This document shows positions 1 to 15,789 of a stretch of DNA of 64,000 bases, piece by piece; positions within the stretch are counted from its first letter, which is position 1; each line of letters begins with the position of its first letter. The DNA comes from a virus. The DNA lies in IMG/VR virus record IMGVR_UViG_3300043449_002675, positions 1 to 64,000 of that record. One strand, given 5' to 3'. A program made the position numbers and the translations under genes. A model generated the notes under the pieces. It was not told the DNA's origin, ran no database searches, and was given only the letters and a program-made list of their open reading frames with translations.

Positions 1-101
1 TAATGCTAGTGGGAAGGTATGTCGGGCTGTACCGCCAGCCTTTCCATATTCCGGTTTGCATATCCGCACCGGCATATCGGTATCTAGCAGGAGTTAGAGT
101 T

Positions 102-1031
102 ATGAGCCGTTCTATCCGTACCCGTCAGGTTCGTCAGGTTCGTTCCATGGCCAACGGCCTAGCACGCTGGGATGGTGCCGACGCAATCACCGCCCTGAAT
201 GAGATCGGGGGGAATTGGATTCCCCAGATCGAAACCATCCACCGGCCCGATGGCAGCGTGATTGAAGGCAAGCAGGGGATCATCAATCCCCTTGCCAACA
301 CTCACTTGGGCGTGACCAGCGATTCCTACGCTGGGATTGATAACGGGCTGATTGCGGAAGGCATTACCCGCTTTGCGGATGCGGTAAAAAAGACCTACCG
401 CATCTCCAATGCATATTGCAATGACGGGGGGCGGGTTGTGGGTCTTGAAGCAATCCTAGGGGATGGTTTCCAAGTAGTTCCAAAGGATACTGTTTTCCAG
501 ACTGTTCAGGTTTTCCAAGGCCATGGCGGTAACCTGCCTTTCACCTTCCTGACAGAGATGAAAAGGCTGGTTTGCTCCAATGGTTTGATGATGAAGGTGC
601 CCGGTTTGTCTACTTGCTTCCGCTGCAAGCACACAACAAACGGGCAAGCACGGGTCGAATGGAATTTTGATCTGGTTTCCAAGGCTTTTGCTGAGTCTGC
701 CGACGATATGCGAAACGCCTTCACTACCCTTGCAGCCAAAAGGCTTTCCAAGGAAGGGGCGAGGGAATTCTTCCGCCAGTATGCCCAGACTGTCCTGAAG
801 CAGGACGGGGCAAAACTGGAACAAACTGTATCCGATCTATCCCTTGTTTACGCAATGCCCCGCAATGCGGAAGCAGGCGAAAACCTTTGGGCTGCATTCA
901 ATGCCCTGACAGAGTGGAACCAACACTACGGGTTCCGGTCAGACGAGGCAATGCAGCTGGGCAACCTGACCGGCGCTGCCCTGACGGGCAAGACGAATGC
1001 TTTTGAGTTTGCCTTGGCTCAGGCTGCATAA
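102..1031 (+). CDS. DUF932-family (phage/plasmid TIGR03299-like) protein
   Basis: LGVTSDSYAGIDN, HGGNLPF..RLVCSNGL, KHT and NLWAAFNALTEW motifs typical of DUF932. AGGAG at 89-93 favours ATG 102 over the ORF-track start at 3. GC content is higher than the rest of the window. Confidence 0.8.
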   Translation: MSRSIRTRQVRQVRSMANGLARWDGADAITALNEIGGNWIPQIETIHRPDGSVIEGKQGIINPLANTHLGVTSDSYAGIDNGLIAEGITRFADAVKKTYRISNAYCNDGGRVVGLEAILGDGFQVVPKDTVFQTVQVFQGHGGNLPFTFLTEMKRLVCSNGLMMKVPGLSTCFRCKHTTNGQARVEWNFDLVSKAFAESADDMRNAFTTLAAKRLSKEGAREFFRQYAQTVLKQDGAKLEQTVSDLSLVYAMPRNAEAGENLWAAFNALTEWNQHYGFRSDEAMQLGNLTGAALTGKTNAFEFALAQAA

Positions 1032-1058
1032 CCATAACTAAAAACCTAGAAGGTTTTG

Positions 1059-1084
1059 CCCCCGCCTTCCGGCGGGGGTTTTTT
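1059..1084 (+). terminator. Rho-independent terminator
   Basis: CCCCCGCC-TTCC-GGCGGGGG followed by a T run, just after the DUF932 stop. Confidence 0.9.
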
Positions 1085-1089
1085 ATTAC

Positions 1090-1155
1090 ATATCCATATC
1101 TAATACCTTACATATCCACTATTCCATATCCCACTATTCCATATCTACCTATCTG
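1090..1155. repeat. Degenerate C-rich tandem repeat (CCACTATTCCATATC-like)
   Basis: catatccactattccatatcccactattccatatctacctatc; almost no G on the + strand. Confidence 0.6.
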
Positions 1156-1287
1156 CCTTGTCCACTATATGCGCCACACCAATACTATTCCTACCCGCTT
1201 TGTAGCTTATTAAATCCTTTCCCATTATAAAAAGATATCTCGGTATAACAAAATATATCCCCTACGGCTTTTGAGATTCTTCTAGTC

Positions 1288-1360
1288 TTTAAATTCATTT
1301 ACCTGTGGCTTAGTGTCCAAGCTATTACCCTACTATTTAAATTCGTTTACCTGTGGCTTA
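1288..1360. repeat. 25-bp direct repeat pair TTTAAATTCRTTTACCTGTGGCTTA
   Basis: Copies at 1288-1312 and 1336-1360, one mismatch, separated by 23 bp. Confidence 0.85.
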
Positions 1361-1461
1361 AAGGCCGGACGGATAAACTCCTACGGATTGTAAATATTAC
1401 ACTGGATATATTCCTTCCCTCTGCCGATAATAAGTATGTCCCAATAACAGGAGGCTCAGCA

Positions 1462-1662
1462 ATGGCTCGAATTTCGCTTTTAACGGCACTTGTTCTTTGT
1501 GGCGGCTGTCGTACCTACCAATCCTTTTGTGCGCCTAAAAACGCAAAATGGGGGCTGGAATCGGGTGTTGCAACTAGTGTGTACCCAAACGCACCATACG
1601 ATGGTCATGAGTACCTAGTAGAGAAGATAGATGTCTCTATCAAGTTAAGGAGGGAATGGTAA
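1462..1662 (+). CDS. Small putative lipoprotein
   Basis: AGGAGG RBS; signal peptide MARISLLTALVLCGG|C with a lipobox-like Cys. Confidence 0.6.
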   Translation: MARISLLTALVLCGGCRTYQSFCAPKNAKWGLESGVATSVYPNAPYDGHEYLVEKIDVSIKLRREW

Positions 1663-1739
1663 TGATTGGATATATGATTGGTATGGCCGCTGGCTTGTAT
1701 ATCATCAGTGCAATGAATAGGATTCAGATCAGAGGATAA
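1662..1739 (+). CDS. 25-aa hydrophobic peptide (MIGYMIGMAAGLYIISAMNRIQIRG)
   Basis: TAATG stop/start overlap with the upstream gene, GGAGGG RBS, ends just before a terminator; too short for the ORF track. Confidence 0.5.
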   Translation: MIGYMIGMAAGLYIISAMNRIQIRG

Positions 1740-1740
1740 C

Positions 1741-1778
1741 AAAGACCCGAAAGGTAGCAATATCTTTCGGGTTTCTTT
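1741..1778 (+). terminator. Rho-independent terminator
   Basis: AAAGACCCGAAAGGTA-GCAA-TATCTTTCGGGTTTCTTT. Confidence 0.75.
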
Positions 1779-1805
1779 CCATTCATAATATTTTGTATGA
1801 ATGGC

Positions 1806-1834
1806 TTGACATTGTATTAGGTTAAGTTCATAAT
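1806..1834 (+). promoter_or_regulatory. Sigma70-type early promoter
   Basis: TTGACA-N17-CATAAT upstream of the GGAGG RBS and ATG 1884. Confidence 0.75.
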
Positions 1835-1883
1835 GATTATGGCTGGTGAGTGCCAGCTTCTTTGACAACTAGGAGGGTTTGAG

Positions 1884-2198
1884 ATGGTTACGCAAGTGCG
1901 TGTGGGTGGCGAAGTACGACAGATCGAAACGGGTAACGACCCGTGGGATGTTATGGGTTCCAGCTTCACAGTGACGGATCCTGAGTTTCTCCCAGACGGA
2001 ACAATTAAAGGTGTGGTCAATGAAAACAAACTTGACCAATACACGGTGTTAAATGGGAACTATCGGGTGCATCCGATGAACATACTCGGGGCAATCTTCC
2101 CCATGGTTCTGATCAGGTGGAATGGAAGGAACTGGGTGGGAACCGAGGGAGTCAAGAGCGTCATCCTTTCCGCCGGCAAGATCTTTGGTATCAAGTAA
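1884..2198 (+). CDS. Hypothetical early protein
   Basis: Has its own promoter, GGAGG RBS and terminator. Confidence 0.75.
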   Translation: MVTQVRVGGEVRQIETGNDPWDVMGSSFTVTDPEFLPDGTIKGVVNENKLDQYTVLNGNYRVHPMNILGAIFPMVLIRWNGRNWVGTEGVKSVILSAGKIFGIK

Positions 2199-2219
2199 CA
2201 AAATAACTACCAACACTAG

Positions 2220-2258
2220 AGACCCGACAGGTATACAATACTTGTCGGGTCTTTTTTT
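2220..2258 (+). terminator. Rho-independent terminator
   Basis: AGACCCGACAGGTAT-ACA-ATACTTGTCGGGTCT plus T run; stem related to the one at 1741. Confidence 0.85.
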
Positions 2259-2538
2259 ATCCACACAACATTACAGACAAAGAGAGTATAAATATTTTAC
2301 ATAATAAAGAATTAATTTTGTCTTTTGAAAAACTATACACATTGTGGATATAGGTAGGGGGGAATTCCCAAATGGCTCATTGTTTATTTAACTTAACCCA
2401 TTTTTTCTAAATGCTACGCACACTTTACAAAATTGGAGTAAAATAAAGTAAAACAGACCCCCCTTAAATCTATAAAGAATAAAAAAAGCCGGAATTTAAA
2501 AAAAACCGGCGGGGTAATTTTTTATATGGGGTAGGTTT

Positions 2539-3132
2539 TTATTCTTTTGGTATAGCTTGATTTTTATTAAGTACTTTGATTTGTTTGGGGTCGAAAACAG
2601 CGATATTATTTGCGCCAGTTTCTTGAGTGAGTATTGAGTCGAATCCCATTTTCTTGATATAGTCTATGATTGGTTTGGATTCTACGAATCTCCAGCTTTT
2701 ATTTTCGATTCTCCAGAGTATGTGATCGACTGCATCATCTGTGGTTTGAACGGGTTGATTTGTTTTGTGGTTAGTGAGAGTAGGTGAGATATTGAAGTTA
2801 GCTCCGGTTTCTTCGTCTTTGTATTTAGCTTCTACATTTTGTTTGATGATTGGGATGAGCATTTCTCTATGATCTTTGTTTTGTGGGTTGAATGGATTTT
2901 TAGCATCTAGGCAGGCTGTGAAGACATGTCCTTTGGTTTCATCGCCTGAGAATCCTTGTCCTGTTGCGAAATTATGTGCGAATTGTGGGTTATCGGTGAA
3001 GTAAATAGTGCCGTAGTAGTTTGAGTGTCCGGGGTCGAAGTTATCGAAATCTTTTTGGGTTCCGTGGTAGACGGGTCCAAAGAGTCCGTTGCATTGGTTA
3101 TCTTGTTCATTTAACCATTGTTTAAAATTCAT
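2539..3132 (-). CDS. ADP-ribosyltransferase-like protein (ART-PolyVal type) with capsid-targeting-like N-terminus
   Basis: VYHGT..FDNF, IYFTDNPQFA..FA, LDAKNPF, GFDSI and IAVFDPKQIK motifs; starts MNFKQWLNE. Confidence 0.75.
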   Translation of the reverse strand: MNFKQWLNEQDNQCNGLFGPVYHGTQKDFDNFDPGHSNYYGTIYFTDNPQFAHNFATGQGFSGDETKGHVFTACLDAKNPFNPQNKDHREMLIPIIKQNVEAKYKDEETGANFNISPTLTNHKTNQPVQTTDDAVDHILWRIENKSWRFVESKPIIDYIKKMGFDSILTQETGANNIAVFDPKQIKVLNKNQAIPKE

Positions 3133-3151
3133 AATATTTATATATAAAAAT

Positions 3152-3319
3152 ATGTTAACATTTATGGAATGGTTGAATGAATATAATGCACCTAGGGCTG
3201 GGATGAAGTCTAGGTGGTCTGTAAAATATAAGAAGTCTATTAATTGCAGTAATCCTAAAGGATTTAGTCAGAAGAATTATTGTAAGCGGAAGAAGCGTGG
3301 TGGTGGTTATAAGGGTTAG
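3152..3319 (+). CDS. Small basic phage protein with capsid-targeting-like N-terminus
   Basis: MLTFMEWLNE followed by WSVKYKKSINCSNPKGFSQKNYC; TATATA 5 nt upstream. Confidence 0.7.
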   Translation: MLTFMEWLNEYNAPRAGMKSRWSVKYKKSINCSNPKGFSQKNYCKRKKRGGGYKG

Positions 3320-3615
3320 AGTAAATCGGCTTTGAGTACTTTATATATTTTTGAAGGTAATTTATAATCTTTTCTACCGTTTGGGAATTCGTCATCTAGT
3401 TCTAGGTCTTTTATTGGTACAACGACTTTAACTACGGTGCCATCGCCGTAACCTATATTAGATGGGGTATTGGTGAGGAAGACGTTTGGTTCTTTTCCGA
3501 TGAGTGTGAGGGTATCGAGAATATTTTGTGCTGCGTCTTTGGTGGTATGGTGGTAGAGGGTGGCGGTTTTAGGGCCATTGTTATTTTTTGATTCTAGCCA
3601 GATTTTGAAGTTCAT
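3316..3615 (-). CDS. Putative minimal ADP-ribosyltransferase-fold protein, capsid-targeting-like N-terminus
   Basis: MNFKIWLES; LYHHTTKDAAQNIL...VFLT...YGDGTVVKV pattern of H-type ART/KptA-like folds; TATAAATA immediately upstream. Confidence 0.55.
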   Translation of the reverse strand: MNFKIWLESKNNNGPKTATLYHHTTKDAAQNILDTLTLIGKEPNVFLTNTPSNIGYGDGTVVKVVVPIKDLELDDEFPNGRKDYKLPSKIYKVLKADLL

Positions 3616-3619
3616 GATT

Positions 3620-3641
3620 TATTTATACGCAGGTGTAAATA
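3620..3641. promoter_or_regulatory. Divergent T4-late-like promoters (TATAAATA on - strand, TAAATA on + strand)
   Basis: Boxes lie 4 nt before ATG 3615 (-) and 5 nt before ATG 3647 (+), with no room for an SD. The same architecture recurs more than 12 times. Confidence 0.7.
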
Positions 3642-3646
3642 CTTTT

Positions 3647-4423
3647 ATGTTAGGTTTCAAGCAATTTATTGAAGCAAATAGTCCTGAGTTCAACAGGCGG
3701 GCAGAGATTATATCTGGTGCAGGCAACATAATATTCAATATAAATGATGAAAACAAAAAAAAAGTCATGATTGATTTATATGATTTAAACGATTTTCACA
3801 AAGTAAGAGATGATCGTTATGGTAGTGATAATTTTATGAAGGATATTAGAAAAACAGTTGATGAAAAGGCAGCGGTAGAAAAAGCCAAAGTTGGCGGAGG
3901 TATTTTGGAGATGAAAGACAATCCTGCCAATCTGCATATTTGGTTGGACGATAATCTCAGGGGCAAAGGGGTAGGGGGAATGATTTATGAGATAGCCATG
4001 GAGTATGCCACTGCTCACGGCAAAGCCCTTGTGATGTCTGGTGCCAAGGATGACATGTTTACTAGTAAAAACGCATATAAGGTATGGGATCATTTCTATA
4101 AGAATCGCCAGAACGTAATTCCTGTACCAATAAGCAAATACAGTGGAAATAACAAATACGATAAAATAATAGCACAAAAAATTCTAGACGGTCTCATAGA
4201 CACTGGAAATAGGTTTAATGATCGACGATCAGTCACTCCCGAAGTAATAGAGGAGCTTAAAGAAAAGTATCCGACAGCATTTCATGCTTTTAAGCGTAAT
4301 ATGTATACTATTCCGCATTTGCAAAAGGCTAGGAAGCTAATTGAAATAAACAATATTGACGAGTTGTATAAATATTTTTCTACATTGGTGGATGGAAAAT
4401 ATAAAAAATTCAGTATGGCATGA
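3647..4423 (+). CDS. GNAT-family acetyltransferase, capsid-targeting-like N-terminus
   Basis: Acetyl-CoA motif A LRGKGVGGMIYE plus TSKNAYKVW; starts MLGFKQFIEA. Confidence 0.7.
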   Translation: MLGFKQFIEANSPEFNRRAEIISGAGNIIFNINDENKKKVMIDLYDLNDFHKVRDDRYGSDNFMKDIRKTVDEKAAVEKAKVGGGILEMKDNPANLHIWLDDNLRGKGVGGMIYEIAMEYATAHGKALVMSGAKDDMFTSKNAYKVWDHFYKNRQNVIPVPISKYSGNNKYDKIIAQKILDGLIDTGNRFNDRRSVTPEVIEELKEKYPTAFHAFKRNMYTIPHLQKARKLIEINNIDELYKYFSTLVDGKYKKFSMA

Positions 4424-4435
4424 TTTATATTTATT

Positions 4436-4900
4436 ATGAAGACATTTATGCAATATTTGGTTGAGAATGAGGTAGGGGATTATTTAACTCAGTTGAAAAA
4501 TATGGGTTATACGTTAATGGCGCATCAGACGCATAGGGATATAGCTGACAAAATAATAACTCAGGGATTTGGTGGGAATGCTGGTGTATCTGGGACAGCA
4601 TTGATGACTTCACCTGATGCGGTGCGGCAAGCGATGGAGGCTATGAGGGAGAAGCAGAGTGGTCGTGAGGGTCCGGGATCTGGTTTAGTTCATGGCGGAT
4701 CAGATTCTATAGTATTGATGGCTGTGCCGAAGATGATACAAGGAACACGGGTTAAGGGATTGGATGATATTGATTATTATTTAGGAGAATTGAATTTGGG
4801 CATGAAGGTGCCGAATCAGAACATAATAGGTTATGCAACTTCTGATGGGCAGATGGTGAGGAATCCTAATTTTGATCCTAAGAAATCGCCGTTGCAGTAA
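4436..4900 (+). CDS. Putative ART-fold protein with capsid-targeting-like N-terminus
   Basis: MKTFMQYLVE; AHQTHRDIADKIITQGF resembles the HxT..I...GF start of ART domains (weak). Confidence 0.5.
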   Translation: MKTFMQYLVENEVGDYLTQLKNMGYTLMAHQTHRDIADKIITQGFGGNAGVSGTALMTSPDAVRQAMEAMREKQSGREGPGSGLVHGGSDSIVLMAVPKMIQGTRVKGLDDIDYYLGELNLGMKVPNQNIIGYATSDGQMVRNPNFDPKKSPLQ

Positions 4901-5111
4901 TAAGTTGAATTTTAGATTCTTTAATGCATTTGGTGCAAGCTTTAGTTTTCTTATTATTTAATTTGAATGATTGTAGGTTTGGGAGGAATCTTCTTTTGGA
5001 GATACCTGTGATTTTAACGCCATTTCCTTTGAGGTATTTGGGTTTACCTCTTTTGGATATGGAATAGCCGGTGGTGGGTGATTTGCCGCAAATTTGGCAC
5101 AGTTTTGACAT
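4878..5111 (-). CDS. rpmB: 50S ribosomal protein bL28 (Zn-ribbon form, PVC/Planctomycetota-like)
   Basis: CQICGK...SKRRFLPNLQ...CTKCIK; long RGKPKYLKGNGVKITG loop; AGGAG RBS. Confidence 0.92.
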   Translation of the reverse strand: MSKLCQICGKSPTTGYSISKRGKPKYLKGNGVKITGISKRRFLPNLQSFKLNNKKTKACTKCIKESKIQLITATAIS

Positions 5112-5125
5112 GATTGGACTCCTTT

Positions 5126-5158
5126 CTGCTAATTTAGCAGCTGGGAGATGGTTGTCAA
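5126..5158 (-). promoter_or_regulatory. Sigma70-type promoter of rpmB with overlapping palindrome
   Basis: TTGACA-N16-TAAATT with extended TG; inverted repeat CTGCTAA-N-TTAGCAG at 5126-5140 covers the -10 and start region. Confidence 0.65.
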
Positions 5159-5194
5159 GGGGTTAATTTTCTTTGATGCGCAATAAATACAATT

Positions 5195-5986
5195 ATGCAA
5201 TTTAGACAATGGTTAGAGAGTAAGGGCATATTGATACCGGATGATATAGATTCGGTAATAGATGGTTTAGTGCCTAAGATAATGGAGAAATTGCCGGAAT
5301 CGTTAGGGAATATTGGTAAGGATGTATTAGTGGCATCGAATGTACCTTTGGGAAGTCCTTATGGGATAAAAAGTGATGTAAATGTATATTTGAATTCGGA
5401 TCCTGCAAAAAGGGCTTATGGATTTTATAATACAGGTGGCAAGATTACTATAAATGGGTCGGTTGTTCCGAAGCAAAATTCGGAGAGGCACATTCGGAGA
5501 GCATTGTGGCATGAGTTGGGAGTTCATGCTAGGGATCCAAAACTTTTAAGGCGAGATTTGCGTTCAAAACTCACTGCTGCTCAGAATATGCCTGATTACA
5601 AGGAATATGGAAAGTCTTATTTTCATCAACCTGTAGAAGTTGATGCGCATATTGGTGAAATAGTTCACAGTATAGAAAAGTTTGGCAAGCAGTATAAAGA
5701 TAGGCCGGAATGGGCGATGAGTGTTTTGGATGACACTTTGGCTTATTTGCGAAATCCTAGTTTGGCAAAAAGGACGCAAAGGTTTGGATTATTAGCTGAT
5801 CCAAAATGGCAGGACAAGTTTAAGCAATATTTGGACGATCCGAAGTTAAAAAGATTGATGTTTGATCGTTTGTATAATGCTGTAGCTAGGGCGAAGGAGA
5901 GGATTAAGCCATCTGCTGGCAATCCGGCTTCTGACAGGGCGAAAGAATTTATAAATAAATTACGGGCAAGAAAAAGCATTAAGTAA
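5195..5986 (+). CDS. Zincin-like metallopeptidase, capsid-targeting-like N-terminus
   Basis: MQFRQWLES; GFY..ITIN...ALWHELGVH (HExxH with a one-residue insertion) and downstream YFHQPVEVDAH. Confidence 0.6.
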   Translation: MQFRQWLESKGILIPDDIDSVIDGLVPKIMEKLPESLGNIGKDVLVASNVPLGSPYGIKSDVNVYLNSDPAKRAYGFYNTGGKITINGSVVPKQNSERHIRRALWHELGVHARDPKLLRRDLRSKLTAAQNMPDYKEYGKSYFHQPVEVDAHIGEIVHSIEKFGKQYKDRPEWAMSVLDDTLAYLRNPSLAKRTQRFGLLADPKWQDKFKQYLDDPKLKRLMFDRLYNAVARAKERIKPSAGNPASDRAKEFINKLRARKSIK

Positions 5987-6974
5987 CGTTTGTAAGACCT
6001 GCTGAGACACCTTGAGCGGCACTGGCTGCGGCAGTTGCCGCATCGGTGTGTGTTAGATTTTTAACAAATTTGGATGTCATTTTAGCTGGTGTAATGGATT
6101 GGGTCATATCTTGAGTTGGGGATATGATTGGGACATTTAGATTACTGAGAATTTTATTGACATCATCGGCGTTGACCAAGTTTGTGTTTGTGACTGCTTG
6201 TCCTAGTGCTTGTAAATTATCTGGAGTAGCTAGGGCTTTATATGATTTTCCTATACCTGCGCCTACTGCAAGTCCGATTCCTGTTAGGAAAAGTGCTTTT
6301 GCGATAGGAACTTTATTTTTATTTGCCCATTGCAGAACATTTCCGGCAGCTTGTTTCATTTTTGGACCCAAATAATTTGCGAGTTTTGAGGTATTACCTA
6401 CAAGTTTACCTGCCATGTTTCCTATCATATGTCCGGCGGTATCTCTCCAACCTTCGTCATACTTATTTTGCAAGAAGTTGTGAAATGAGTAATCTTCGTG
6501 GTGAGGAGTTTGTACTCCCATCATTGCAGCGCCTTTATCAAAAGCTTTTCCTGCAAATTTATTCAATTGTTTATCGGCAAAGTAGGTGAGTGCTGCCAAT
6601 GGTACAGCACCGCCGCCACCTGTAAGACCTGCTGCTAATAGTGTAATTGCAAATGTTGGAGATATTCCTAATTTTTTTAGAGTATCTCCCATGGTAGAAG
6701 CTATTTGTGATGCGGTTTTAATGGCAGGTTCTGCTGCCTGCCTATATTTCTCTAAATTTTCTTGATCGAGGAATGTTGGCTGGTTTTTTTGTGTAGCTTG
6801 TTGGCCTTGTTGGTAGCCGGCTCTTAAATTATGGAAGAATCCTTTATTTTGTATTGGACCAGTAGTTTGTTGTGGATTTGCTTGTTGTTGTGCTGGTGCT
6901 TGTGGATTTGCTTGTTGTTGTGCCGGCGGCGGCGGCAATTTTTCTTCAGCAAGGTATTGTTTGAAGCTAATCAT
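5979..6974 (-). CDS. Gln-rich protein with Gly/Ala hydrophobic segments, capsid-targeting-like N-terminus (possible ejection protein)
   Basis: MISFKQYLAE; QQQANPQ repeats; FAITLLAAGLTGGGGAVPLAAL and ALFLTGIGLAVGAGIG segments. Confidence 0.7.
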   Translation of the reverse strand: MISFKQYLAEEKLPPPPAQQQANPQAPAQQQANPQQTTGPIQNKGFFHNLRAGYQQGQQATQKNQPTFLDQENLEKYRQAAEPAIKTASQIASTMGDTLKKLGISPTFAITLLAAGLTGGGGAVPLAALTYFADKQLNKFAGKAFDKGAAMMGVQTPHHEDYSFHNFLQNKYDEGWRDTAGHMIGNMAGKLVGNTSKLANYLGPKMKQAAGNVLQWANKNKVPIAKALFLTGIGLAVGAGIGKSYKALATPDNLQALGQAVTNTNLVNADDVNKILSNLNVPIISPTQDMTQSITPAKMTSKFVKNLTHTDAATAAASAAQGVSAGLTNVT

Positions 6975-7396
6975 TATTTTTGTTGTTGTTGGGGTTGTGG
7001 TTGAGCTTGCTGTTGTTGTTGTTGTTGTTGTTGTTGACCTTGTTGGGGTTGCTGCTGTTGCTGTTGAGGTTGAGGTTTTTGTTGCGGCTGTGCTTTTGCT
7101 TTTAGTTGTTGAATTGCTTGAACGTGTTTTGCAACTTCATTAGGTTTTGCTGCTAATTGTGCAAGTTGTGATACGGTGATTTTTGGCATGAGTGTTTTGG
7201 TTAGATATTCGAAAGTAGTTGCATCTGTTTTTTGCAAAGGTTCCAAAGATTTATTTGCAGTATCTGTAATGGTTTTGAAAAGAGTCTGTAGTTGACCAAC
7301 AGCGTTTTTCATAGCCTGTTGGGGATTTTGCTGTTGAGCCTGTTGCTGTTGGGGTTGTTGTTCAGACAGCATAATAAATTCTTTGAAAGTTTTCAT
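6974..7396 (-). CDS. Poly-Gln protein, capsid-targeting-like N-terminus
   Basis: MKTFKEFIMLSE; Q-rich ends; TAAATA 6 nt upstream; TAATG coupling to the next gene. Confidence 0.75.
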   Translation of the reverse strand: MKTFKEFIMLSEQQPQQQQAQQQNPQQAMKNAVGQLQTLFKTITDTANKSLEPLQKTDATTFEYLTKTLMPKITVSQLAQLAAKPNEVAKHVQAIQQLKAKAQPQQKPQPQQQQQQPQQGQQQQQQQQQQAQPQPQQQQK

Positions 7397-7408
7397 GATA
7401 ATTATTTA

Positions 7409-7663
7409 TTATTTCCCTTCAACTTTTTTCAGTTTTGTGTAGTATTTGGGATCTTCTCTTAGATGGGCAATAGCTATTTTGAGAACATCGGAAGGTCTTT
7501 TGACTACATCGGTATCTTTATCTTTGTTGTGTTCTTTTTCAGTGTTTACGCCGAGTACTAATTCGTTTCTGTCATAGTTGCTTATATTTAGACCGGTATC
7601 CTTTGACATCTTTACAACGTCATCGAAGTTATATCTTTTTAGCCATTCGGTGAATAGTATCAT
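7409..7663 (-). CDS. DUF5661-like phage protein
   Basis: ELVLGVNTEKEH...IAIAHLREDPKYYTKL signature; starts MILFTEWLK. Confidence 0.7.
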   Translation of the reverse strand: MILFTEWLKRYNFDDVVKMSKDTGLNISNYDRNELVLGVNTEKEHNKDKDTDVVKRPSDVLKIAIAHLREDPKYYTKLKKVEGK

Positions 7664-7694
7664 AATTTTATGTACACAGATACGTAAATAATGT

Positions 7695-8096
7695 ATGAAT
7701 TTTAAGTTATGGTTATTGGAAAATGCTGCTGCGCCTCAGGAATTGCCTAATGAGATTCAGGAGTTTATTTATAATCTTGCACCATATGGTCATGCGGTGC
7801 AGATGAGTTTTCCTGCTGCTGCGAAGAGGGCACCGGGAGAATTTATAATGGGTGGGCAGCAGTTTTTGCAGTTGTTGCAGCAATTTTTCAATAGGGCATC
7901 ACAAGCTTTGCGTAATCCTGCATCTCCGGTGGAATACAGAAAGCAGTTAGGGGAATATTTGCAGAAGAATCAGCAGATATTAAATCATTATTTTACAGAT
8001 CCTGAATTTGCCAATCAGACATATGTAATACACACGAATAGACCGGGTCAGCGTTATGCTGAAAATAAATTAAATACTGTATTTCCAGTTTTGTGA
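7695..8096 (+). CDS. Hypothetical protein, capsid-targeting-like N-terminus
   Basis: MNFKLWLLE; TAAATA 4 nt upstream. Confidence 0.75.
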   Translation: MNFKLWLLENAAAPQELPNEIQEFIYNLAPYGHAVQMSFPAAAKRAPGEFIMGGQQFLQLLQQFFNRASQALRNPASPVEYRKQLGEYLQKNQQILNHYFTDPEFANQTYVIHTNRPGQRYAENKLNTVFPVL

Positions 8097-8321
8097 TTTA
8101 TTCCGCCAGTTAATAACACCTGAGCGCATTTTTTGTAGAAATGTCATGCAAAAAGTTATTCTTGGAAGTGTTGAAAAGCAAGAAGACCAGCTAACTGGGC
8201 TGGTGTAGGTAATTTCAGTCATTCTTATATTTGGCGGAATACAACCATTAGGTCCTAAGGAATAGCTTTGAAACGACTTAAAAAGTCTGACATCGCTATC
8301 GGAATGTAGGCGTTTGATCAT
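8070..8321 (-). CDS. Hypothetical protein
   Basis: GGAGG RBS and CTATAGT -10-like box upstream. Confidence 0.5.
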   Translation of the reverse strand: MIKRLHSDSDVRLFKSFQSYSLGPNGCIPPNIRMTEITYTSPVSWSSCFSTLPRITFCMTFLQKMRSGVINWRNKSQNWKYSI

Positions 8322-8364
8322 GTTATCCTCCGTTGACTATAGTGTCTTTTTTGCGAAGTTAAAG

Positions 8365-8649
8365 TTATACTTTGCCTGCGTCTTCAATTCTTTTGATTAT
8401 TTTATCAGGTTTAGCAGGTTTAAGTGGAGGAAGGCCGGGCTTAAGTTTCTCTTCTGGTTCGTGGTCTGATATTGCAAGTGGTGTATCGAGATATCCTCTT
8501 TTAGCAAGTTCTGCTGTGCCAAGAAGTCCAGCGCCTGCAGCTGTTGCGCCGATGGTGAGAGGAAATTTCCTTACTATTAATTTGGCTTTCTTTTCCAAAA
8601 TGATTTCATTTTGTTGTTCAACGTAGTCACTAAATTTGTAGCTTTTCAT
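8365..8649 (-). CDS. Hypothetical protein with hydrophobic segment, capsid-targeting-like N-terminus
   Basis: MKSYKFSDYVEQ; TATATA 5 nt upstream of ATG 8649. Confidence 0.65.
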   Translation of the reverse strand: MKSYKFSDYVEQQNEIILEKKAKLIVRKFPLTIGATAAGAGLLGTAELAKRGYLDTPLAISDHEPEEKLKPGLPPLKPAKPDKIIKRIEDAGKV

Positions 8650-8709
8650 AAAATTATATATTGTTTGCAAGTTTATATATTTCGTGCGTAATAGTGTTGG
8701 AGGTGTATT

Positions 8710-9477
8710 ATGGCAAGATTTTTTATAATATTGATTTGTTTAATTGGTGTAACTGGAGCATTTGGTCAATTTAGGCCTTATATGCCTCCTAGACCTCCTT
8801 TGCCTCCAGCAACAGTAATTCCTGTGATGCCTAATGGACAAAATGGGTTTAATGGAATGCAAGGAGGTGGTATAAATGGTGGTATGATGGGAATTAGTGG
8901 TGGCATGACGGGCATGGGAGGGATTCAAGGTGGTAATTTTGGTATGTCTGGTGGCGGTATGGGGGTTGGTGGATTTATGGGCCAGCTTGGCGGAATGGCA
9001 GGCGGAATGTCTGGCATGGGCATGGGTGGCTTTGGGATGGGTGGTATGGGTCTTGGTGGCGGCATGGGCGGTATTTCTGGTGGCATGTCTGGTGGCATGA
9101 TGGGAGGCGGAAACAATAATCCTTATGGGGCATATACACCGGGAACTGTAGTGCGACCTAGTGGGATGAGCGGTCCATACAGCGTAATTCCTATTCAAGG
9201 TGGTTACATGTTGGGAATGGGTGGCGGAAGCATGTCTGGTATGGGTATGGGTGGATTTGGTGGTGGACAGTTTGGTTTTGGTGGTGGAATGATGGGGCTT
9301 GGTGGTGGTCAAATCGGTATAGGAGGGCAGTTCGGTGGTAACAATATTGGTAATGGTGGTTTTGGTGGCAACTTTGGCAATTTTGGCGCTATGGGTGGGG
9401 GACAGCTCGGCGGTATGATGGGTGGCGGGTTTGGAGGCAACAAAGGATTCGGATTCTGCGGTGCAAGTGGAATTTGA
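8710..9477 (+). CDS. Secreted Gly/Met-rich low-complexity protein
   Basis: Signal peptide MARFFIILICLIGVTGAFG; GGM/GGFG/GGQFG repeats; GGAGGT RBS. Confidence 0.75.
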   Translation: MARFFIILICLIGVTGAFGQFRPYMPPRPPLPPATVIPVMPNGQNGFNGMQGGGINGGMMGISGGMTGMGGIQGGNFGMSGGGMGVGGFMGQLGGMAGGMSGMGMGGFGMGGMGLGGGMGGISGGMSGGMMGGGNNNPYGAYTPGTVVRPSGMSGPYSVIPIQGGYMLGMGGGSMSGMGMGGFGGGQFGFGGGMMGLGGGQIGIGGQFGGNNIGNGGFGGNFGNFGAMGGGQLGGMMGGGFGGNKGFGFCGASGI

Positions 9478-9552
9478 AAAAATTTACTTGTCTTTCAAAC
9501 ATAAGTGACTAATGTTTACGAAAGGTTGATATCACAAGTGACAGGTGTAATA

Positions 9553-9813
9553 ATGAACATTATCCTTTGGTCTGGTGCTATTGTATTTGCTATTTTAGCA
9601 GGTGGGGCAGCACTATTCTTTATTTTGGCAGTTATTGGGTTTTTGTATAATGTCTTTTTTGAATATCCCGCTGATGCCAAAAGAAAGGCTTTCTTAGCAT
9701 CAAGAGAACCCGTAGACATTGATGCGGCCTTTGAAAGACTGAAGAATAACTTGGAGGATATTGATCGCAGTTCCAAAATCGAAAGCACGGGTTTAAAAGT
9801 ATACAAGGAGTAA
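9553..9813 (+). CDS. Small membrane protein
   Basis: N-terminal hydrophobic helix; AGGTG RBS. Confidence 0.65.
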   Translation: MNIILWSGAIVFAILAGGAALFFILAVIGFLYNVFFEYPADAKRKAFLASREPVDIDAAFERLKNNLEDIDRSSKIESTGLKVYKE

Positions 9814-9816
9814 GTC

Positions 9817-10122
9817 ATGCGTCGTTACACGGTTACGGAAAGGGATATTGCGGGCGGTAGTAATTGGCAGAGGAGGCAGGTTGAAGTCACCAGAGAGCCA
9901 AATGGTGTTGAATCTGTAATTGGATTTTTTCTGTTGATACCTTTGATGCTGCCTTTGTTCTTTATTTTTTACCCTATTGTTGGTTGTCTTGGCCCCAACA
10001 TGGATAGGAGAATGCAGAGCAGTCAAGAAAGGCATGACAGAGAAGTTCAGGATCGTTCTAACAGACAGCGTGAACTGGATAGGTCTTGGATGTCGGATTC
10101 CCAATTTAATTCCAAATACTAG
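9817..10122 (+). CDS. Small membrane protein
   Basis: Central TM helix; AGGAGTAAGTCATG junction. Confidence 0.7.
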   Translation: MRRYTVTERDIAGGSNWQRRQVEVTREPNGVESVIGFFLLIPLMLPLFFIFYPIVGCLGPNMDRRMQSSQERHDREVQDRSNRQRELDRSWMSDSQFNSKY

Positions 10123-10131
10123 GAGTAAGTC

Positions 10132-10299
10132 ATGGAAGCCTTGGTATATTTTGGAATGGTGTGTGTTAGCATTGTATTTGTTGGCACTGTGTTAATTATT
10201 TCTGGGTGTATTATTGCTGCTAAAATAGCAGATATAAAGAAAAAGCCTGCGTCCGAAAACGCAGGCCATGTAGGATTAAAGATTTTTTCGCCGAATTAG
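10132..10299 (+). CDS. 55-aa membrane protein (MEALVYFGMVCVSIVFVGTVLIISG...)
   Basis: Identical AGGAGTAAGTCATG junction; single TM helix; not in the ORF track. Confidence 0.6.
   Translation: MEALVYFGMVCVSIVFVGTVLIISGCIIAAKIADIKKKPASENAGHVGLKIFSPN
10237..10266 (-). terminator. Rho-independent terminator (minus strand)
   Basis: GCCTGCGT-TTTCGG-ACGCAGGC followed by a T run on the - strand, downstream of 10296..10988. Confidence 0.7.
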
Positions 10300-10988
10300 G
10301 CGTGTCTGTTGAGCTTGCCGGCGAATGTAATTGGGTTGATAGGACTTCTTGCTCCACCTCTTCCGCCTGTGATTGGATCGTAGGTAGGGGCTTTCCAAGT
10401 TTCTTTGCCAAACTTCTTTTGTCCCTGCAAGTTGTCGATGACGGATTGTAAAATCGCATCAACGCCTGTATCCCAATTGGCGTTTTCTTCGACAATGGAA
10501 CGAATTTTTCCGGTAAGTTCACGAAGGTCTTTAATTTTCTTATCAAATGCTCTTTTGATAATTGCATCGCCTTCTTTCATTTTCTGCATGTCTTTGGGAT
10601 CCATAAGATCGCCTTCGAGACCTTTTAGCTCAATCTGTTGTAGATCAGCCAAAACTTTTTCTCTTTGGTTGGTTAGATCTCTTCTGGCTTGTTCCAAGCT
10701 GTAGATAGCTTCTCTGGAAATGTCATACATTTTTTCATTTGCTTTTGACACCGTGGTCTGAAGATGTGTGAGTACATCAACTAGGTCTGACTGTGCTGTA
10801 CTTATATTACTATCTCTTGCAAAGTCAGTCGCTGTCTGTCTTATTTTGTTAGCAGTTCCGAAAACGGTGTCTCTAGCAAAGTTTCCTAAGGTGTTAAAAA
10901 ACCCTTTTATACGTGACTTGACTCCCTCGTCTAGAGTTTCGTCTCCATCTCTTGCTCTTCTATAATCGTTAAAAGATATTTTTCTCAT
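10296..10988 (-). CDS. Coiled-coil protein (possible internal virion protein)
   Basis: MRKISFNDY...LDEG; helical heptads; GAGG RBS. Confidence 0.7.
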   Translation of the reverse strand: MRKISFNDYRRARDGDETLDEGVKSRIKGFFNTLGNFARDTVFGTANKIRQTATDFARDSNISTAQSDLVDVLTHLQTTVSKANEKMYDISREAIYSLEQARRDLTNQREKVLADLQQIELKGLEGDLMDPKDMQKMKEGDAIIKRAFDKKIKDLRELTGKIRSIVEENANWDTGVDAILQSVIDNLQGQKKFGKETWKAPTYDPITGGRGGARSPINPITFAGKLNRHA

Positions 10989-11086
10989 GTTTTCCTCTAA
11001 GAGTAAATCTTTAAATATATAGAATAATGTGTAAAATTTTTGAGTTCTAAAACATATAATATGTTTTTACGTAATTGGAGAAAGAA

Positions 11087-11494
11087 ATGGCACAGTATCA
11101 CAAACACTTGATTTTGAATGCAATAGTCAGGAATCCTATTCAGACAGAAGAGGACTGTAATTGTTGGTTAGCGGAGCTTGTTCGCATAATTGACATGGAC
11201 ATATTGATTCCTCCGCATTCTAAGTATTGTGATATTGAAGGGAATGAAGGAGTAACCGGTACTTGTGTAATTACAACAAGTCATGTTAGCATTCATGTGT
11301 GGTCAAAGGTTGAGAAGCCTTATATCAGAATGGATGTTTACAGTTGCAAGGATTTCGACGTATCTAAGGTATTGGATTATGTAAATGGAACTATGGATAC
11401 GGAAGAAGAGGGTCATTTGGTAATTGACAGGAACTCTATTGGCCCTAAAGTTTCTTGCTGTTCTGATCATAAATGTCAGGCAGCATCGGTTTAA
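11087..11494 (+). CDS. speD: S-adenosylmethionine decarboxylase proenzyme
   Basis: HKHLI..., GVTGTCVITTSHVSIHVW (self-cleavage Ser), DVYSCKDFD. Confidence 0.88.
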   Translation: MAQYHKHLILNAIVRNPIQTEEDCNCWLAELVRIIDMDILIPPHSKYCDIEGNEGVTGTCVITTSHVSIHVWSKVEKPYIRMDVYSCKDFDVSKVLDYVNGTMDTEEEGHLVIDRNSIGPKVSCCSDHKCQAASV

Positions 11495-11960
11495 TTCGAT
11501 TTAAAATTTCTTTTACTTTTTCATTTTCTATATCACTATTTGCCAGTGATGTTAGGTAGAAATAAGCTGTGGACAGGGCTTTTAGGGCACCTAGTACTAT
11601 AGCTTGTTTTGATGGGTCTAATGCTGCCAAGAAAGGCGATATTGTTGGGAAAAGTACCAAGGGGTTAGCGAGAGCAAGTTTGCTTGATTGTCCAACGGAT
11701 TTTGCCAAACTTTTCCAGTATTTAATTTTCTTTGGGCTACGCATGACTTTTCTGAGATCGTATGCGACATCAATATTAGATTTTAATGTTGGTTTGAGCA
11801 TGAGAATCATTTTGCTGGTTCCAAGAATAAAATCTGCTAATTTAATAATTTTTTTATAGTCTGCGACATCATTTACGGCTTCGAGTGGGGACGGTCCATC
11901 GTGTCCCATGTGGGAAGCGACATCTGAGTATGATTCTAAAAATTCTTTGAAGCCGTGCAT
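11445..11960 (-). CDS. Hypothetical protein, capsid-targeting-like N-terminus, hydrophobic C-half
   Basis: MHGFKEFLES; TATATA 4 nt upstream. Confidence 0.7.
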   Translation of the reverse strand: MHGFKEFLESYSDVASHMGHDGPSPLEAVNDVADYKKIIKLADFILGTSKMILMLKPTLKSNIDVAYDLRKVMRSPKKIKYWKSLAKSVGQSSKLALANPLVLFPTISPFLAALDPSKQAIVLGALKALSTAYFYLTSLANSDIENEKVKEILNRIKPMLPDIYDQNSKKL

Positions 11961-11970
11961 TCAATATATA

Positions 11971-12252
11971 TTATTCCCAGTATTCTTCTTCATTTATCCA
12001 GTAGTGTAAGACTAAATTTCCCGATGCTGAAGGGTATTGTCTATCTATTTTAATCTTGCCGTTATGAATATCTTGGTGGCATTTTCTGCAGCAGACTACT
12101 GTGTTTTGATCTGTATATTTGCCGCCATTTTCTCCTTCAACAATTCTATGAACATCTAGAAACTCGTAGACATCGCATGGGCAAAACTTGCATTTGCCAG
12201 CTATATGTTTCTTGGCTTTTTTATTTATTAGTTTTTTGATTCTTCGTGCCAT
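11971..12252 (-). CDS. HNH endonuclease
   Basis: CKFC...DVHRI..GGKY..NTVVCCRKCHQDIH. Confidence 0.85.
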   Translation of the reverse strand: MARRIKKLINKKAKKHIAGKCKFCPCDVYEFLDVHRIVEGENGGKYTDQNTVVCCRKCHQDIHNGKIKIDRQYPSASGNLVLHYWINEEEYWE

Positions 12253-12923
12253 TTATCCAGATAGTCCAAATAATCAGGTAAACAATTATACATGAATGTA
12301 AAATCTTTAGTTGGGTGAAATTTGAAATATAGTTCTGATAGAGTTTGTTCTGGTGTTGCAATGATGCAGGTTTTCAATCTGTTTTTAAATTTGAAGCCAA
12401 GATGTGAAAGTAGGCTATAGTCATATCCAATATACCCGAATGCGTTTTGTAGAATTCCGATTTTTTGTATAAGGCTATATTTTGATTTATCAATAATTGT
12501 GTTTTTGATTTGTTTGGTAAAAGAATTGAAGCTAAAAAGTTGAATATTGTGTTTAACGGCAATTTTTTCTAGTAATCCTATGTTTTGGTCGCCGATATAA
12601 TCTTCGACCAAGATATATTTTTTATCAACTAGTTTTGGAAGTGTTGGCATTTCTTGCAGGGAAATTTTACATTTCCAGTAATAGATTTTTTTGATAAGGA
12701 CATAGCTTAAAAGGTCTCTTCCGTTTACGGTATTTTGCAGGATATTTTCCTTTGGGATGACAGTAAGTGATTTTAGTGTACGAACTGTTTGGCAGACTGA
12801 TTTGATATCGTTTTCTATTTCTGGCAGGCAATATATTTTAGTTTTCTCCAATTCTTCATCGGAGAGGTAGGCTTGCATGAGCATAAAAAAGTTTAGATTT
12901 TTGCAACATATATCTAATATCAT
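12228..12923 (-). CDS. Glycosyltransferase family 9-like protein (divergent)
   Basis: ILQNAFGYIGYDYSLLSHL resembles the GT9 IGxDSGxxHL motif. Confidence 0.4.
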   Translation of the reverse strand: MILDICCKNLNFFMLMQAYLSDEELEKTKIYCLPEIENDIKSVCQTVRTLKSLTVIPKENILQNTVNGRDLLSYVLIKKIYYWKCKISLQEMPTLPKLVDKKYILVEDYIGDQNIGLLEKIAVKHNIQLFSFNSFTKQIKNTIIDKSKYSLIQKIGILQNAFGYIGYDYSLLSHLGFKFKNRLKTCIIATPEQTLSELYFKFHPTKDFTFMYNCLPDYLDYLDKWHEESKN

Positions 12924-12958
12924 AAAAGCCTTTTTTGCGGTTAATAATATATACTTGT

Positions 12959-13651
12959 ATGTATATGGAGCAGCTTAAATTCAGTAAATGGTTAGCGGAA
13001 GTTAACTTGGGCACCTTAGAAACCGAGCTTGTAGACAGCAAGCCAATAGAGTCTTTGTATGCGAAGGCCAAGAATGCGGTTGATTTGGTACGCAAGTATG
13101 ATCAGGCTGAAGCAGAGCATAATTGGTTGAAGAAGAGAGTAGGCTGGCAGGGTCCGAAGAATGATTTCGGATATTTATTGAATATAAGTACTATCGCACC
13201 TTTGGCTGGGACCATATATGGTTTGTTTAACAGCAGGGAAAATCAAAGAATATTAGACAAAGATGTGCGCAAGTATCCGGTAACATTTAAATCAAACAGG
13301 CCATTGACGAAGGATGAAAAGGGAGAGGAAGATCTCCTAAAAAACCTTGCTTTTAATATTATGAAGAAGCAGTATCCTGATATTGATCCAAATAAGATAC
13401 ATGACAGTGCTGTAATACACGTAAATGTGCCTCATATTGTCAATACTATGAAGATGAGGGGTTTGACTGGTGAGGAGCTTGAAAAGGCTATAATAAGAGA
13501 AATTGCTAGTACCATAGTGCATGAATCTACGCATCAGTTGGAGAGGACATGGATGGGAGCAACGGATGAAAATGGTCCTAAAGAGGCGGAAAAAAGGTTT
13601 GTTAATTGGCTTGAAAGAAATCCTAACTTGCTAGCTATGGCGGCAAAATGA
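12959..13651 (+). CDS. HExxH metallopeptidase-like protein, capsid-targeting-like N-terminus
   Basis: LKFSKWLAE; STIVHESTHQLE...DENGPKEAE; TATATA 5 nt upstream. Confidence 0.7.
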   Translation: MYMEQLKFSKWLAEVNLGTLETELVDSKPIESLYAKAKNAVDLVRKYDQAEAEHNWLKKRVGWQGPKNDFGYLLNISTIAPLAGTIYGLFNSRENQRILDKDVRKYPVTFKSNRPLTKDEKGEEDLLKNLAFNIMKKQYPDIDPNKIHDSAVIHVNVPHIVNTMKMRGLTGEELEKAIIREIASTIVHESTHQLERTWMGATDENGPKEAEKRFVNWLERNPNLLAMAAK

Positions 13652-14647: not shown

Positions 14648-14903
14648 ACCATACGTCGAAACAGGAAGGGGAAGCAAAGTAGTCAGGGAATTTAGTCCAG
14701 ATGTTCCATTTGAAGATTTGAAATGGCACAGAGACTACGAAGATAGAATTGTTCGTGTATTAGAAGATAATGATTGGAAATATCAAGAAGACAATAAGCT
14801 CCCCGTTCCATTGATCGGGGAGCTTTTTATTCCTAAAGGTTTATGGCATAGAGTAATCAAGGGCACAACAAAACTAAAAGTTGAAATAACTAAGCTTTCT
14901 TAA
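14640..14903 (+). CDS. Small cupin-fold protein
   Basis: LKWHRDYEDR and FIPKGLWHRV cupin motifs. Confidence 0.7.
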   Translation: MDKPYVETGRGSKVVREFSPDVPFEDLKWHRDYEDRIVRVLEDNDWKYQEDNKLPVPLIGELFIPKGLWHRVIKGTTKLKVEITKLS

Positions 14904-15789
14904 AAACAAGCAGAGACTTCTGGAACCAGTCACATCCATCTGTAACTATACTTCTTGCTTCATCAGTTTTTTGTTGGTCAAATACAAAGCCATAATCTTC
15001 AACAAATTCAATAGATTCATCATTATTTTTGCAATTAACGTGTCCTATTCCCATTTGTCCTCTAACCGCCCAAGACATAACTAACCAATCGTTACAAGCT
15101 GCTTCTATATTTGCAAAAAGTTTGCCTGCTAATTTAGCAGGAACATGTTCTGCAACTTCCAAGCATATAACAGATCCTTTAGTTTTTATATTAATAGGCT
15201 TGGTAATATCTTGTTCTAGTATCTTTTTACAAGCTGGTTGCTGTGGGGGAGAGCCTTCAAATCCTGTGCATTTTTTAAAACCATTTTTTTCTAGTTCGCC
15301 TAGATAGAATCCTGTTCCACATCCGAAGTCATAAACAATTTCATCGGGGTTCAATAAGTTTGCTATGTATTTAGCCAAATTTTGACTATGTAGATGATGG
15401 CTATGATCTGTCCAATATCCGCTTTTAGAAATATGTTTTATTTCCCTGTGTCTTCTTTCGATAAATTCTATAGTGTCCTTAATGTTCATTGAGCTATCGC
15501 ACTTATAAAGGTATTCAAGACCTTTTTCTGTTTGCATGGAATCTGCGTGGCATAATCCCAAGTGTAAGTAAATGTTCTGTTTCAAGTCATAAGGCGGCAA
15601 GAGATTTAGACATTTGGTGAAATAATTTATTGCTTTATTATATTCACCAAGTTCCTTGTACGCAAGTCCTATTGTGTAGTAATGTATCATTTCGCTAGCG
15701 CAATCCGCTAGTTCGTCTGCTATTTTAATAGCAAATTTGGTTTTTTTATTATCAACAAAGAATTTGCAAACTTGTAAGATATTAGACAT
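14890..15789 (-). CDS. TPR-containing class I SAM methyltransferase
   Basis: N-terminal TPR (GLAYKELGEYNKAINYF); DFGCGTG, CLEVAEHVP and GIGHVNC. Confidence 0.85.
   Translation of the reverse strand: MSNILQVCKFFVDNKKTKFAIKIADELADCASEMIHYYTIGLAYKELGEYNKAINYFTKCLNLLPPYDLKQNIYLHLGLCHADSMQTEKGLEYLYKCDSSMNIKDTIEFIERRHREIKHISKSGYWTDHSHHLHSQNLAKYIANLLNPDEIVYDFGCGTGFYLGELEKNGFKKCTGFEGSPPQQPACKKILEQDITKPINIKTKGSVICLEVAEHVPAKLAGKLFANIEAACNDWLVMSWAVRGQMGIGHVNCKNNDESIEFVEDYGFVFDQQKTDEARSIVTDGCDWFQKSLLVFKKA

Follow-up and report, generated by a model that had tools for sequence, protein, structure and literature searches.

A gene for ribosomal protein bL28 in very large T4-like phages from freshwater

Introduction

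Genes encoding ribosomal proteins are a recognized component of viral genomes. Of these proteins, 14 are named by Mizuno et al. (2019; PMC6375957), whose Supplementary Table 2 includes bS21, bL12, HPF, bL31, bL33, uS9 and bS6, as well as uL11, uS15, bL19, bS20, uL10 and uL2; bL28 is not among these. The authors put the emphasis on loosely bound, exchangeable proteins, and bL28 is missing from the readily exchanged ones that they list. For huge phages, Al-Shayeb et al. (2020; PMC7162821) report S4, S1, S21 and L7/L12, while the preprint on PhiMa05 (10.1101/2025.09.23.678156) adds bS1, bL21, bL27, bL33, uL11 and uL1; bL28 is listed in neither. As for L28 itself, a river-virome preprint (bioRxiv 10.1101/2023.04.04.535500) describes it on a pair of viral bins that were linked with a Patescibacteria genome. 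The L28 genes concerned show 93% nucleotide identity, apparently to the copy of the putative host (the wording is ambiguous), and this value suggests a recent capture or carry-over of host DNA. The initial annotation of the DNA described here regarded phage-borne bL28 as rarely reported, which agrees with its absence from these three lists (in the case of Mizuno et al., from the proteins of Supplementary Table 2 given above) and with its occurrence on two viral bins in one preprint. Phage bL28 is rare, but not unheard of.

Here, we describe a bL28 gene in a T4-like phage contig. Like the virus-encoded ribosomal proteins of the Mizuno, Al-Shayeb and PhiMa05 reports, it is a single gene of cellular type in the genome of a tailed phage, is related to yet distinct from its bacterial homologues, and invites the same proposal, i.e., replacement of the host protein. 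It differs from them in that bL28 is missing from the three lists, as far as the proteins given above represent the first of them. With the L28 of the river viral bins it shares the annotation of bL28 on viral metagenome-assembled genomes. The latter was annotated automatically and belongs with another bacterial group, whereas the protein presented here shares no more than about 58% identity with cellular proteins and occurs in two divergent phages. In our view, the best explanation, to which we assign a probability of roughly 60%, is that the gene encodes a genuine bL28, which a lineage of very large, T4-like phages of freshwater has retained for use in the 50S subunits of the host.

The phage contig and the bL28 locus

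The stretch of DNA analyzed, referred to below as the window, corresponds to positions 1-64,000 of an IMG/VR record of 91,968 bp, for which CheckV estimates a completeness of 18%; the contig should thus represent about 18% of a phage genome of roughly 500 kb. Baseplate components encoded on the record are a wedge protein, a spike OB domain and a P2-I-like protein; it also encodes a T4-type large terminase (TerL), an intein-bearing Gp20 portal protein and a major capsid protein of the Gp23 type. The contig is of genuine phage origin, and bL28 sits with these viral hallmark genes on the same record, not at a prophage or host edge. The Gp23 protein has 74% identity with its counterpart in the uncultured phage LR756511.1 (595 kb), and the next capsid matches reach at most 35%. 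In LR756511.1, the closest complete relative, we found neither a PF00830 match nor homologues of the two genes neighboring bL28. It seems, therefore, that bL28 is dispensable for the wider clade and is located in an accessory region of a sub-lineage.

Several other genes of the contig are worth mentioning. The intein of the portal protein (PF14890, residues 155-335) splits gp20, and a second intein-containing gene carries a LAGLIDADG domain. The genes for a CCA-adding enzyme, for ClpP and for SpeD lie close together; the closest Atlas clusters of the CCA-adding enzyme are viral, followed by cyanobacterial ones, and we judged them uninformative with regard to the host. Gly/Met repeats (GGMxGMGG...) make up nearly the whole of a protein of 255 aa whose N-terminus is signal-like. 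No tRNA, bL33 or bS21 gene was found in the parts of the contig that were searched.

Both genes flanking bL28 lie on the plus strand and start with the sequence M-x-x-F-x-x-W/Y-L-x-E, so that the placement of bL28 antisense among tagged genes, pointed out in the initial annotation, holds. In the form M-x(1-4)-F-x-x-[WFY]-[LIV]...E, this N-terminal tag occurs in 12 of the 149 contig ORFs that start with ATG and have at least 70 aa. It was present in none of 1460 ORFs from cellular loci of bacteria of the PVC superphylum (Planctomycetota, Verrucomicrobiota, Chlamydiota and relatives). The coordinates of the features discussed are collected in Table 1.

Table 1. Features of the bL28 locus and of other genes mentioned in the text (window positions unless another contig is named)
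Feature	Position	Strand	Basis or remark
bL28 (rpmB-like) CDS, 77 aa, CxxC...CxxC zinc-ribbon form with long RGKxKYL loop	4878..5111	-	PF00830, TIGR00009, fold
Strain-specific C-terminal tail of bL28, last 6-7 codons (...TATAIS)	4878..4899	-	left by 1-kb deletion, junction 4899/4900
Shine-Dalgarno sequence AAAGGAG, 7 nt ahead of the bL28 ATG	5119..5125	-	identical in L112
Perfect 7+1+7 palindrome CTGCTAA-A/T-TTAGCAG enclosing the -10 hexamer	5126..5140	.	CTGCTAAaTTAGCAG on minus strand, 5140-5126
Sigma70-like promoter, TTGACA (5158-5153), 16-nt spacer, TGc-TAAATT (-10 at 5136-5131)	5131..5158	-	10/12 matches, TG present
AATAAATA box, 5 nt before the ATG of the divergent tagged gene	5182..5189	+	T4-late-promoter-like, no SD
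Convergent tagged gene	4436-4900	+	N-terminal tag
Divergent tagged gene	5195-5986	+	N-terminal tag
Tagged ORFs (examples)	3132 (-), 3615 (-), 4436 (+), 5195 (+), 6974 (-), 7396 (-), 7695 (+), 11960 (-), 62083 (+); contig 72910 (-), 86184 (+)		range 2539-13651 and contig-wide
DUF932 protein	3-1031		
287-aa ORF	3560-4423		missing in L112
255-aa Gly/Met-repeat protein	8710-9477	+	
CCA-adding enzyme	17818-19110	-	encoded near ClpP and SpeD (also 16447-17091 (-), 11075-11494 (+))
Gp20 portal protein	L192 5978-8524 (contig 69978-72524)		split by intein
Gp23 major capsid protein	L192 12531-13970 (contig 76531-77970)		
Second intein-containing gene	L193 6776-8839 (contig 88776-90839)		LAGLIDADG domain
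334-aa gene directly after bL28 in L112	L112 2254-3258		missing in window

The bL28 protein

The product of the bL28 ORF scores 34.7 bits with the Pfam model Ribosomal_L28 (PF00830; cut-off 27) and narrowly passes the NCBIfam equivalog TIGR00009, its 49.1 bits exceeding the cut-off of 48.3 by less than 1 bit. Its cysteines at positions 5, 8, 59 and 62 align with the Cys columns of the family, and the same two-CxxC pattern was found in 336 of the 428 relatives that we collected. Judged by the placement of these residues, the protein is of the zinc-binding (C+) form, with metal binding predicted. The long loop reads KRGKPKYLKGNGVKITGISKRRFLPNL. Of the 17 columns that are invariant or nearly so in an alignment of 40 family sequences, the protein keeps 16, the sole departure being the change of G28 to K; the core residues checked were the N-terminal CxxCGK, G15, G22, K25, G29, G31, TG and R-R-F-x-P-N.

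The AlphaFold2 model calculated from the same alignment reaches a mean pLDDT of 85.9. All 50 PDB matches listed by Foldseek are ribosome entries holding bL28, with a best E of 5.8e-6 (Thermus thermophilus) and TM values of 0.59-0.65. The T. thermophilus protein, known from 70S structures (e.g., 6qnq and 4v4i), is the best solved match, giving 45 bits over residues 1-51 and a TM of about 0.6 with the phage model. It possesses the same long loop; however, within the aligned residues 1-51 the second Cys of its N-terminal CxxC is replaced by Ser. With 93-98 residues it is also the longer chain, and its C-terminal part stays unaligned in the sequence search. Both family models, the CxxC...CxxC pattern and the predicted fold thus bear out the earlier description of a complete bL28 with four zinc-ribbon cysteines, and by sequence criteria the ORF is an intact, presumably functional bL28 gene. 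Its C-terminal tail overlaps the 3' end of the convergent tagged gene.

A divergent relative and retention in a phage lineage

An exhaustive HMMER search of 1.84 billion cluster representatives returned only 318 matches at E up to 0.001, the best 155 of which all have the long loop. The only close match among the 318, P0001, is 60-65% identical to the window bL28. It is encoded on a 1.9-kb contig (L113) of 40% GC without recognizable cellular genes, and the adjoining ORF starts with MQGFSQFLAE, which fits the N-terminal tag. The two proteins share a trait that we detected in no other sequence of 337: the spacing from PNx to the second CxxC is 12 residues, versus 16-17 in the others, so that the hairpin of the phage pair is 4-5 residues shorter than in relatives. 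The window and L113 proteins differ at about 40% of positions (60% amino acid identity) and dS is saturated, while the L113 ORF is intact and its core conserved. A related bL28 with the same unique hairpin deletion next to a tagged gene implies that bL28 has been kept by a phage lineage, and the sequences indicate that it was retained through about 40% amino acid divergence, with synonymous sites saturated.

Other searches gave no further members. No match to the phage bL28 was obtained by tblastn in 50,697 GenBank phage records. Peptide-pattern scans of IMG/VR with the window protein, P0001, two alignments and the 263-aa neighbor yielded no confirmed match; these scans consisted of a few specific patterns, by which a short-loop bL28 would be missed. 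The exact window protein is absent from a collection of 15 billion proteins.

Origin of the gene

The named close relatives of the phage bL28 belong to Planctomycetota, Kiritimatiellota, Lentisphaerota, Verrucomicrobiota, Omnitrophota and Hydrogenedentes, with identities of up to about 58%. Among 61 genomes sampled evenly from the phylum of a Blastopirellula bin, identity to the phage bL28 was at most 54%. As no cellular sequence comes closer than about 58%, the capture of the gene is probably old.

In a maximum-likelihood tree (76 rows, 77 columns, built without short-loop or Deinococcota sequences), the window bL28 and P0001 are sisters (87/91). The pair is placed inside the starred Planctomycetota clade (96/94), nearest to Pirellulaceae and apart from both the Kiritimatiellota-Lentisphaerota-Verrucomicrobiota clade and Omnitrophota. 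The branch of the window protein is long (1.07, against a median of 0.27), whereas that of P0001 is 0.34; in an earlier tree that lacked P0001, the window protein was left unplaced on a long branch. The AU test rejected neither a position of the pair with the Kiritimatiellota clade (p 0.215) nor one outside the Planctomycetota clade (p 0.204).

Two sequence signatures point in the same direction as the tree. The RGKxKYL motif is present in 15 of 17 named Planctomycetota and in one bin that bears a Chloroflexota label and clusters with Phycisphaerae in the tree, versus none of the 47 rows of Kiritimatiellota, Verrucomicrobiota, Lentisphaerota and Omnitrophota. Similarly, a PF motif located 13-18 residues after the second CxxC is found solely in Planctomycetota and P0001; it was lost from the bL28 of the window and of its near-identical strain L112 (see below). 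Planctomycetota proteins such as those of Pirellulaceae (loci L008 and L035) share with the phage pair the long RGKAKYLGGVGxKxTG loop and the CxxC...CxxC pattern, and with P0001 the PF motif 15-16 residues past the second CxxC. Yet, identity to the phage pair is only 45-54%, the phage hairpin is 4-5 residues shorter, GNG replaces GVG in both phage proteins, and the window protein has K28. The ESM Atlas neighbors of bL28 are Omnitrophota clusters, which we treat as a lead only, since the tree and the signatures favor Planctomycetota.

The loop had initially been associated with Planctomycetota and the PVC group, and the gene was taken to indicate the host. The first idea finds backing in the tree and the two signatures, but it is tempered by the AU values of 0.20-0.22 and by the bL28 of Thermus, whose long loop means that this form is not exclusive to PVC bacteria. 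We consider a planctomycetal origin of the phage gene probable on these sequence grounds. As to the host, the Planctomycetota-like ancestry of the gene agrees with the claim, but ancestry does not prove the present host, and that the phage now infects a planctomycete is somewhat less likely than that the gene came from one.

The long branch of the window protein, its short hairpin, the G28K change and the narrow TIGR00009 pass are also compatible with a protein that no longer belongs to the ribosome. In that case, it might be a derivative of bL28 exapted as a small basic zinc-ribbon RNA- or DNA-binding protein, which could work as an RNA chaperone or another nucleic-acid-binding factor, or could serve as a decoy where a host factor senses or binds free bL28. 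The hairpin deletion of 4-5 residues is unique, G28K falls on a nearly invariant position, and the C-terminal tail varies between strains, the PF tail of Planctomycetota having been lost in the window and L112. These features have to be set against the 16 of 17 conserved family positions that are retained and against a predicted fold whose listed PDB matches are ribosomal bL28 only. Moreover, P0001 is less derived: its short branch and its PF tail indicate that the lineage began with an ordinary bL28. Hence, we regard exaptation as unlikely, although it is the alternative that survives best.

Independent assemblies of the locus

The same locus was recovered from another metagenome as a 10.35-kb contig (L112), which aligns to positions 1-7139 of the window at 84-97% identity, with its genes in unchanged order. 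Two synonymous and no non-synonymous changes separate the two strains in the first 71 codons of bL28, a count too small to gauge selection on the gene; with the tail included, identity is 98.6% over 74 codons. In L112, bL28 is directly followed by a 334-aa gene that ends in ...TATAIS and is missing in the window. The last six residues of the window bL28 are the same TATAIS, which reveals a 1-kb deletion in the window strain that came to a halt at the border of the bL28 domain. A loose end at 4899, matching the deletion junction, is seen in contigs of the aquaculture runs X2 and X3, and a contig from a third study covers positions 4915-5693. The stretch occurs in freshwater, aquaculture and estuary metagenomes. 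The 334-aa product itself shows a weak TAT-signal match and a HELRH motif. The window, in turn, has an extra 287-aa ORF (about 800 bp, some 500 bp from bL28) that L112 lacks.

Such an indel-rich setting, with a 1-kb gene directly beside bL28 and the 800-bp ORF each present or absent, would also suit a host gene that arrived with its own promoter in a variable accessory region, is useless to the phage and has not yet been lost. The 595-kb relative, which lacks the gene and its neighbors, fits such a neutral passenger too, and selection is not measurable between the window and L112 strains. On the other hand, the gene is intact and its core residues are all kept in two lineages about 40% apart with saturated synonymous sites. 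Furthermore, the capture appears to be old, given a nearest cellular sequence at about 58%, and the deletion to which the neighboring gene fell victim did not proceed beyond the border of the bL28 domain. Retention of a useless gene is, in consequence, quite improbable.

The first 2.3 kb of the window (1-2300), which include the gene of a DUF932 protein, differ in composition from the remainder (GC 0.48 vs. about 0.38). This segment is present in L112 at 95% identity, and L112 extends 3 kb further, so that it is not misassembled. A bacterial rpmB joined to phage DNA by contamination or chimeric assembly, to which the GC-rich start and the position of the window at a contig end might point, can be practically dismissed, as L112 from another metagenome has the same order across bL28 and through the GC-rich part, contigs of two further studies cover the locus, and the bL28 region has the usual GC of the contig with tagged phage genes on both sides. 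The chimeric join, named at first as something that read mapping might reveal, is thereby refuted: the gene order of an independent assembly argues that the locus is no artefact.

Putative expression signals upstream of bL28

The promoter-like site TTGACA-N16-TAAATT with its -10 element inside a palindrome, as originally described, is indeed present upstream of bL28, and it is accompanied by a Shine-Dalgarno (SD) sequence; the -10 ends 20 nt ahead of the ATG. In L112, promoter, palindrome and SD are identical, and the few base differences of the upstream region all lie outside these elements. The L113 bL28 has GGAGG at a position similar to that of the window SD. We found 29 sigma70-like matches in the 92-kb contig, compared with a mean of 29.1 in shuffled sequences. 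With no enrichment of such matches, it is position that speaks for the bL28 promoter: it is one of only two matches in the contig that are intergenic and properly spaced from a start codon, and the chance of a match on the right strand in the 83-bp spacer before bL28 is estimated at about 0.01. A sigma70-type promoter of bL28 is, in this light, plausible.

The neighboring genes are organized differently. A T4-late-like box precedes the divergent tagged gene, which has no SD. We found that a TA[ATC]ATA box just before the start (searched with a looser pattern, 12 bases from -14 to -3) occurs in 17 of 109 rough gene calls, the divergent tagged gene among them, with an SD in none of the 17; an SD is present in 36 further genes of the 109. 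This suggests two expression classes in the contig, of which the boxed one would resemble T4 late promoters and give leaderless or near-leaderless mRNAs. A host-type promoter belonging to bL28 itself, proposed at the outset, is in accord with the sigma70-like promoter and SD, which set this gene apart from neighbors with a T4-late-like box and no SD. The N-terminal tag is also seen in L112 and in the ORF beside the L113 bL28. The suggested connection between bL28 and leaderless mRNAs was not borne out, as nothing linking the two was found; bL28 is not known to act in initiation.

As for the palindrome, it is kept in L112, which is a near-identical strain, and absent upstream of the divergent L113 bL28. 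The copy upstream of bL28 is the only intergenic one in 92 kb. An exact second copy of the 15-mer, at 15126-15140, falls inside a TPR-methyltransferase ORF (14890-15789); the two exact copies are exactly 10,000 nt apart. Near-copies with up to two mismatches are over-represented (6, vs. 0.33 expected), and all of them (9587, 10217, 38647 and 42451, and contig 72085 and 81091) lie within listed ORFs. The reading of the palindrome as operator-like is, therefore, unsupported: there is a single intergenic copy, it is missing from L113, and the further copies and near-copies that a search of the genome brought to light are all in coding ORFs. The palindrome may bind a regulator, as its shape and position hint. 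Its CTG-N9-CAG spacing is wrong for a LexA box of the E. coli type, and it bears no likeness to the usual Zur boxes. No Rfam match was obtained in 4300-5700, and so no known ribosomal-protein leader is located there.

Proposed role in infection

The ribosomal proteins usually found in phages are surface proteins that exchange readily; bL28, in contrast, is an assembly protein. It is reportedly needed for assembly of the 50S subunit in E. coli. Taken together with its absence from the list of readily exchanged proteins, this assembly role argues for entry into new 50S subunits rather than exchange onto existing ribosomes, and entry into newly made subunits is what we consider the most likely role of the phage protein.

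For a bL28 retained for host 50S subunits, we infer from the sequence the following course of events, with regard to timing as well as to ribosome entry, gain for the phage and phylum of the host. It would have begun with the uptake of the gene, in an ancestor of the lineage, from a bacterium with the long-loop, zinc-binding form of bL28, most likely a member of Planctomycetota. The sigma70-type promoter and the SD, which differ from the T4-late-like, SD-less signals of the tagged neighbors, suggest that the gene is transcribed early or in mid-infection, presumably by the unmodified RNA polymerase of the host. The phage bL28 would then enter newly assembled host 50S subunits, either replacing the host bL28 or joining it, and the supply of ribosomes may be kept up, or slightly altered, over a long infection. 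Remodelling of ribosomes early in infection, as envisaged in the initial annotation, is likewise plausible.

A bolder version is that the shortened hairpin and the altered loop make phage-specific ribosomes, altered near the E site and the region where bL9 is anchored. We find this a long shot. If true, such ribosomes would differ, e.g., in frameshifting, bypassing or hibernation, and this would be the first virus to re-tool the large subunit by means of a core assembly protein, as opposed to exchangeable proteins of the surface.

Significance

What is new here is the well-supported viral context of bL28, its retention across divergent phages and the lineage-specific variant that they carry. 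The ribosomal proteins listed for phages are dominated by the loosely bound bS21 and bL12, and bL28 extends this set to a protein required in 50S assembly. The Planctomycetota-like bL28 is, in addition, one of the few clues to the host of an uncultured group of freshwater, aquaculture and estuary phages. A phage-encoded bL28 would suggest that some huge phages support or alter the production of ribosomes and not only initiation.
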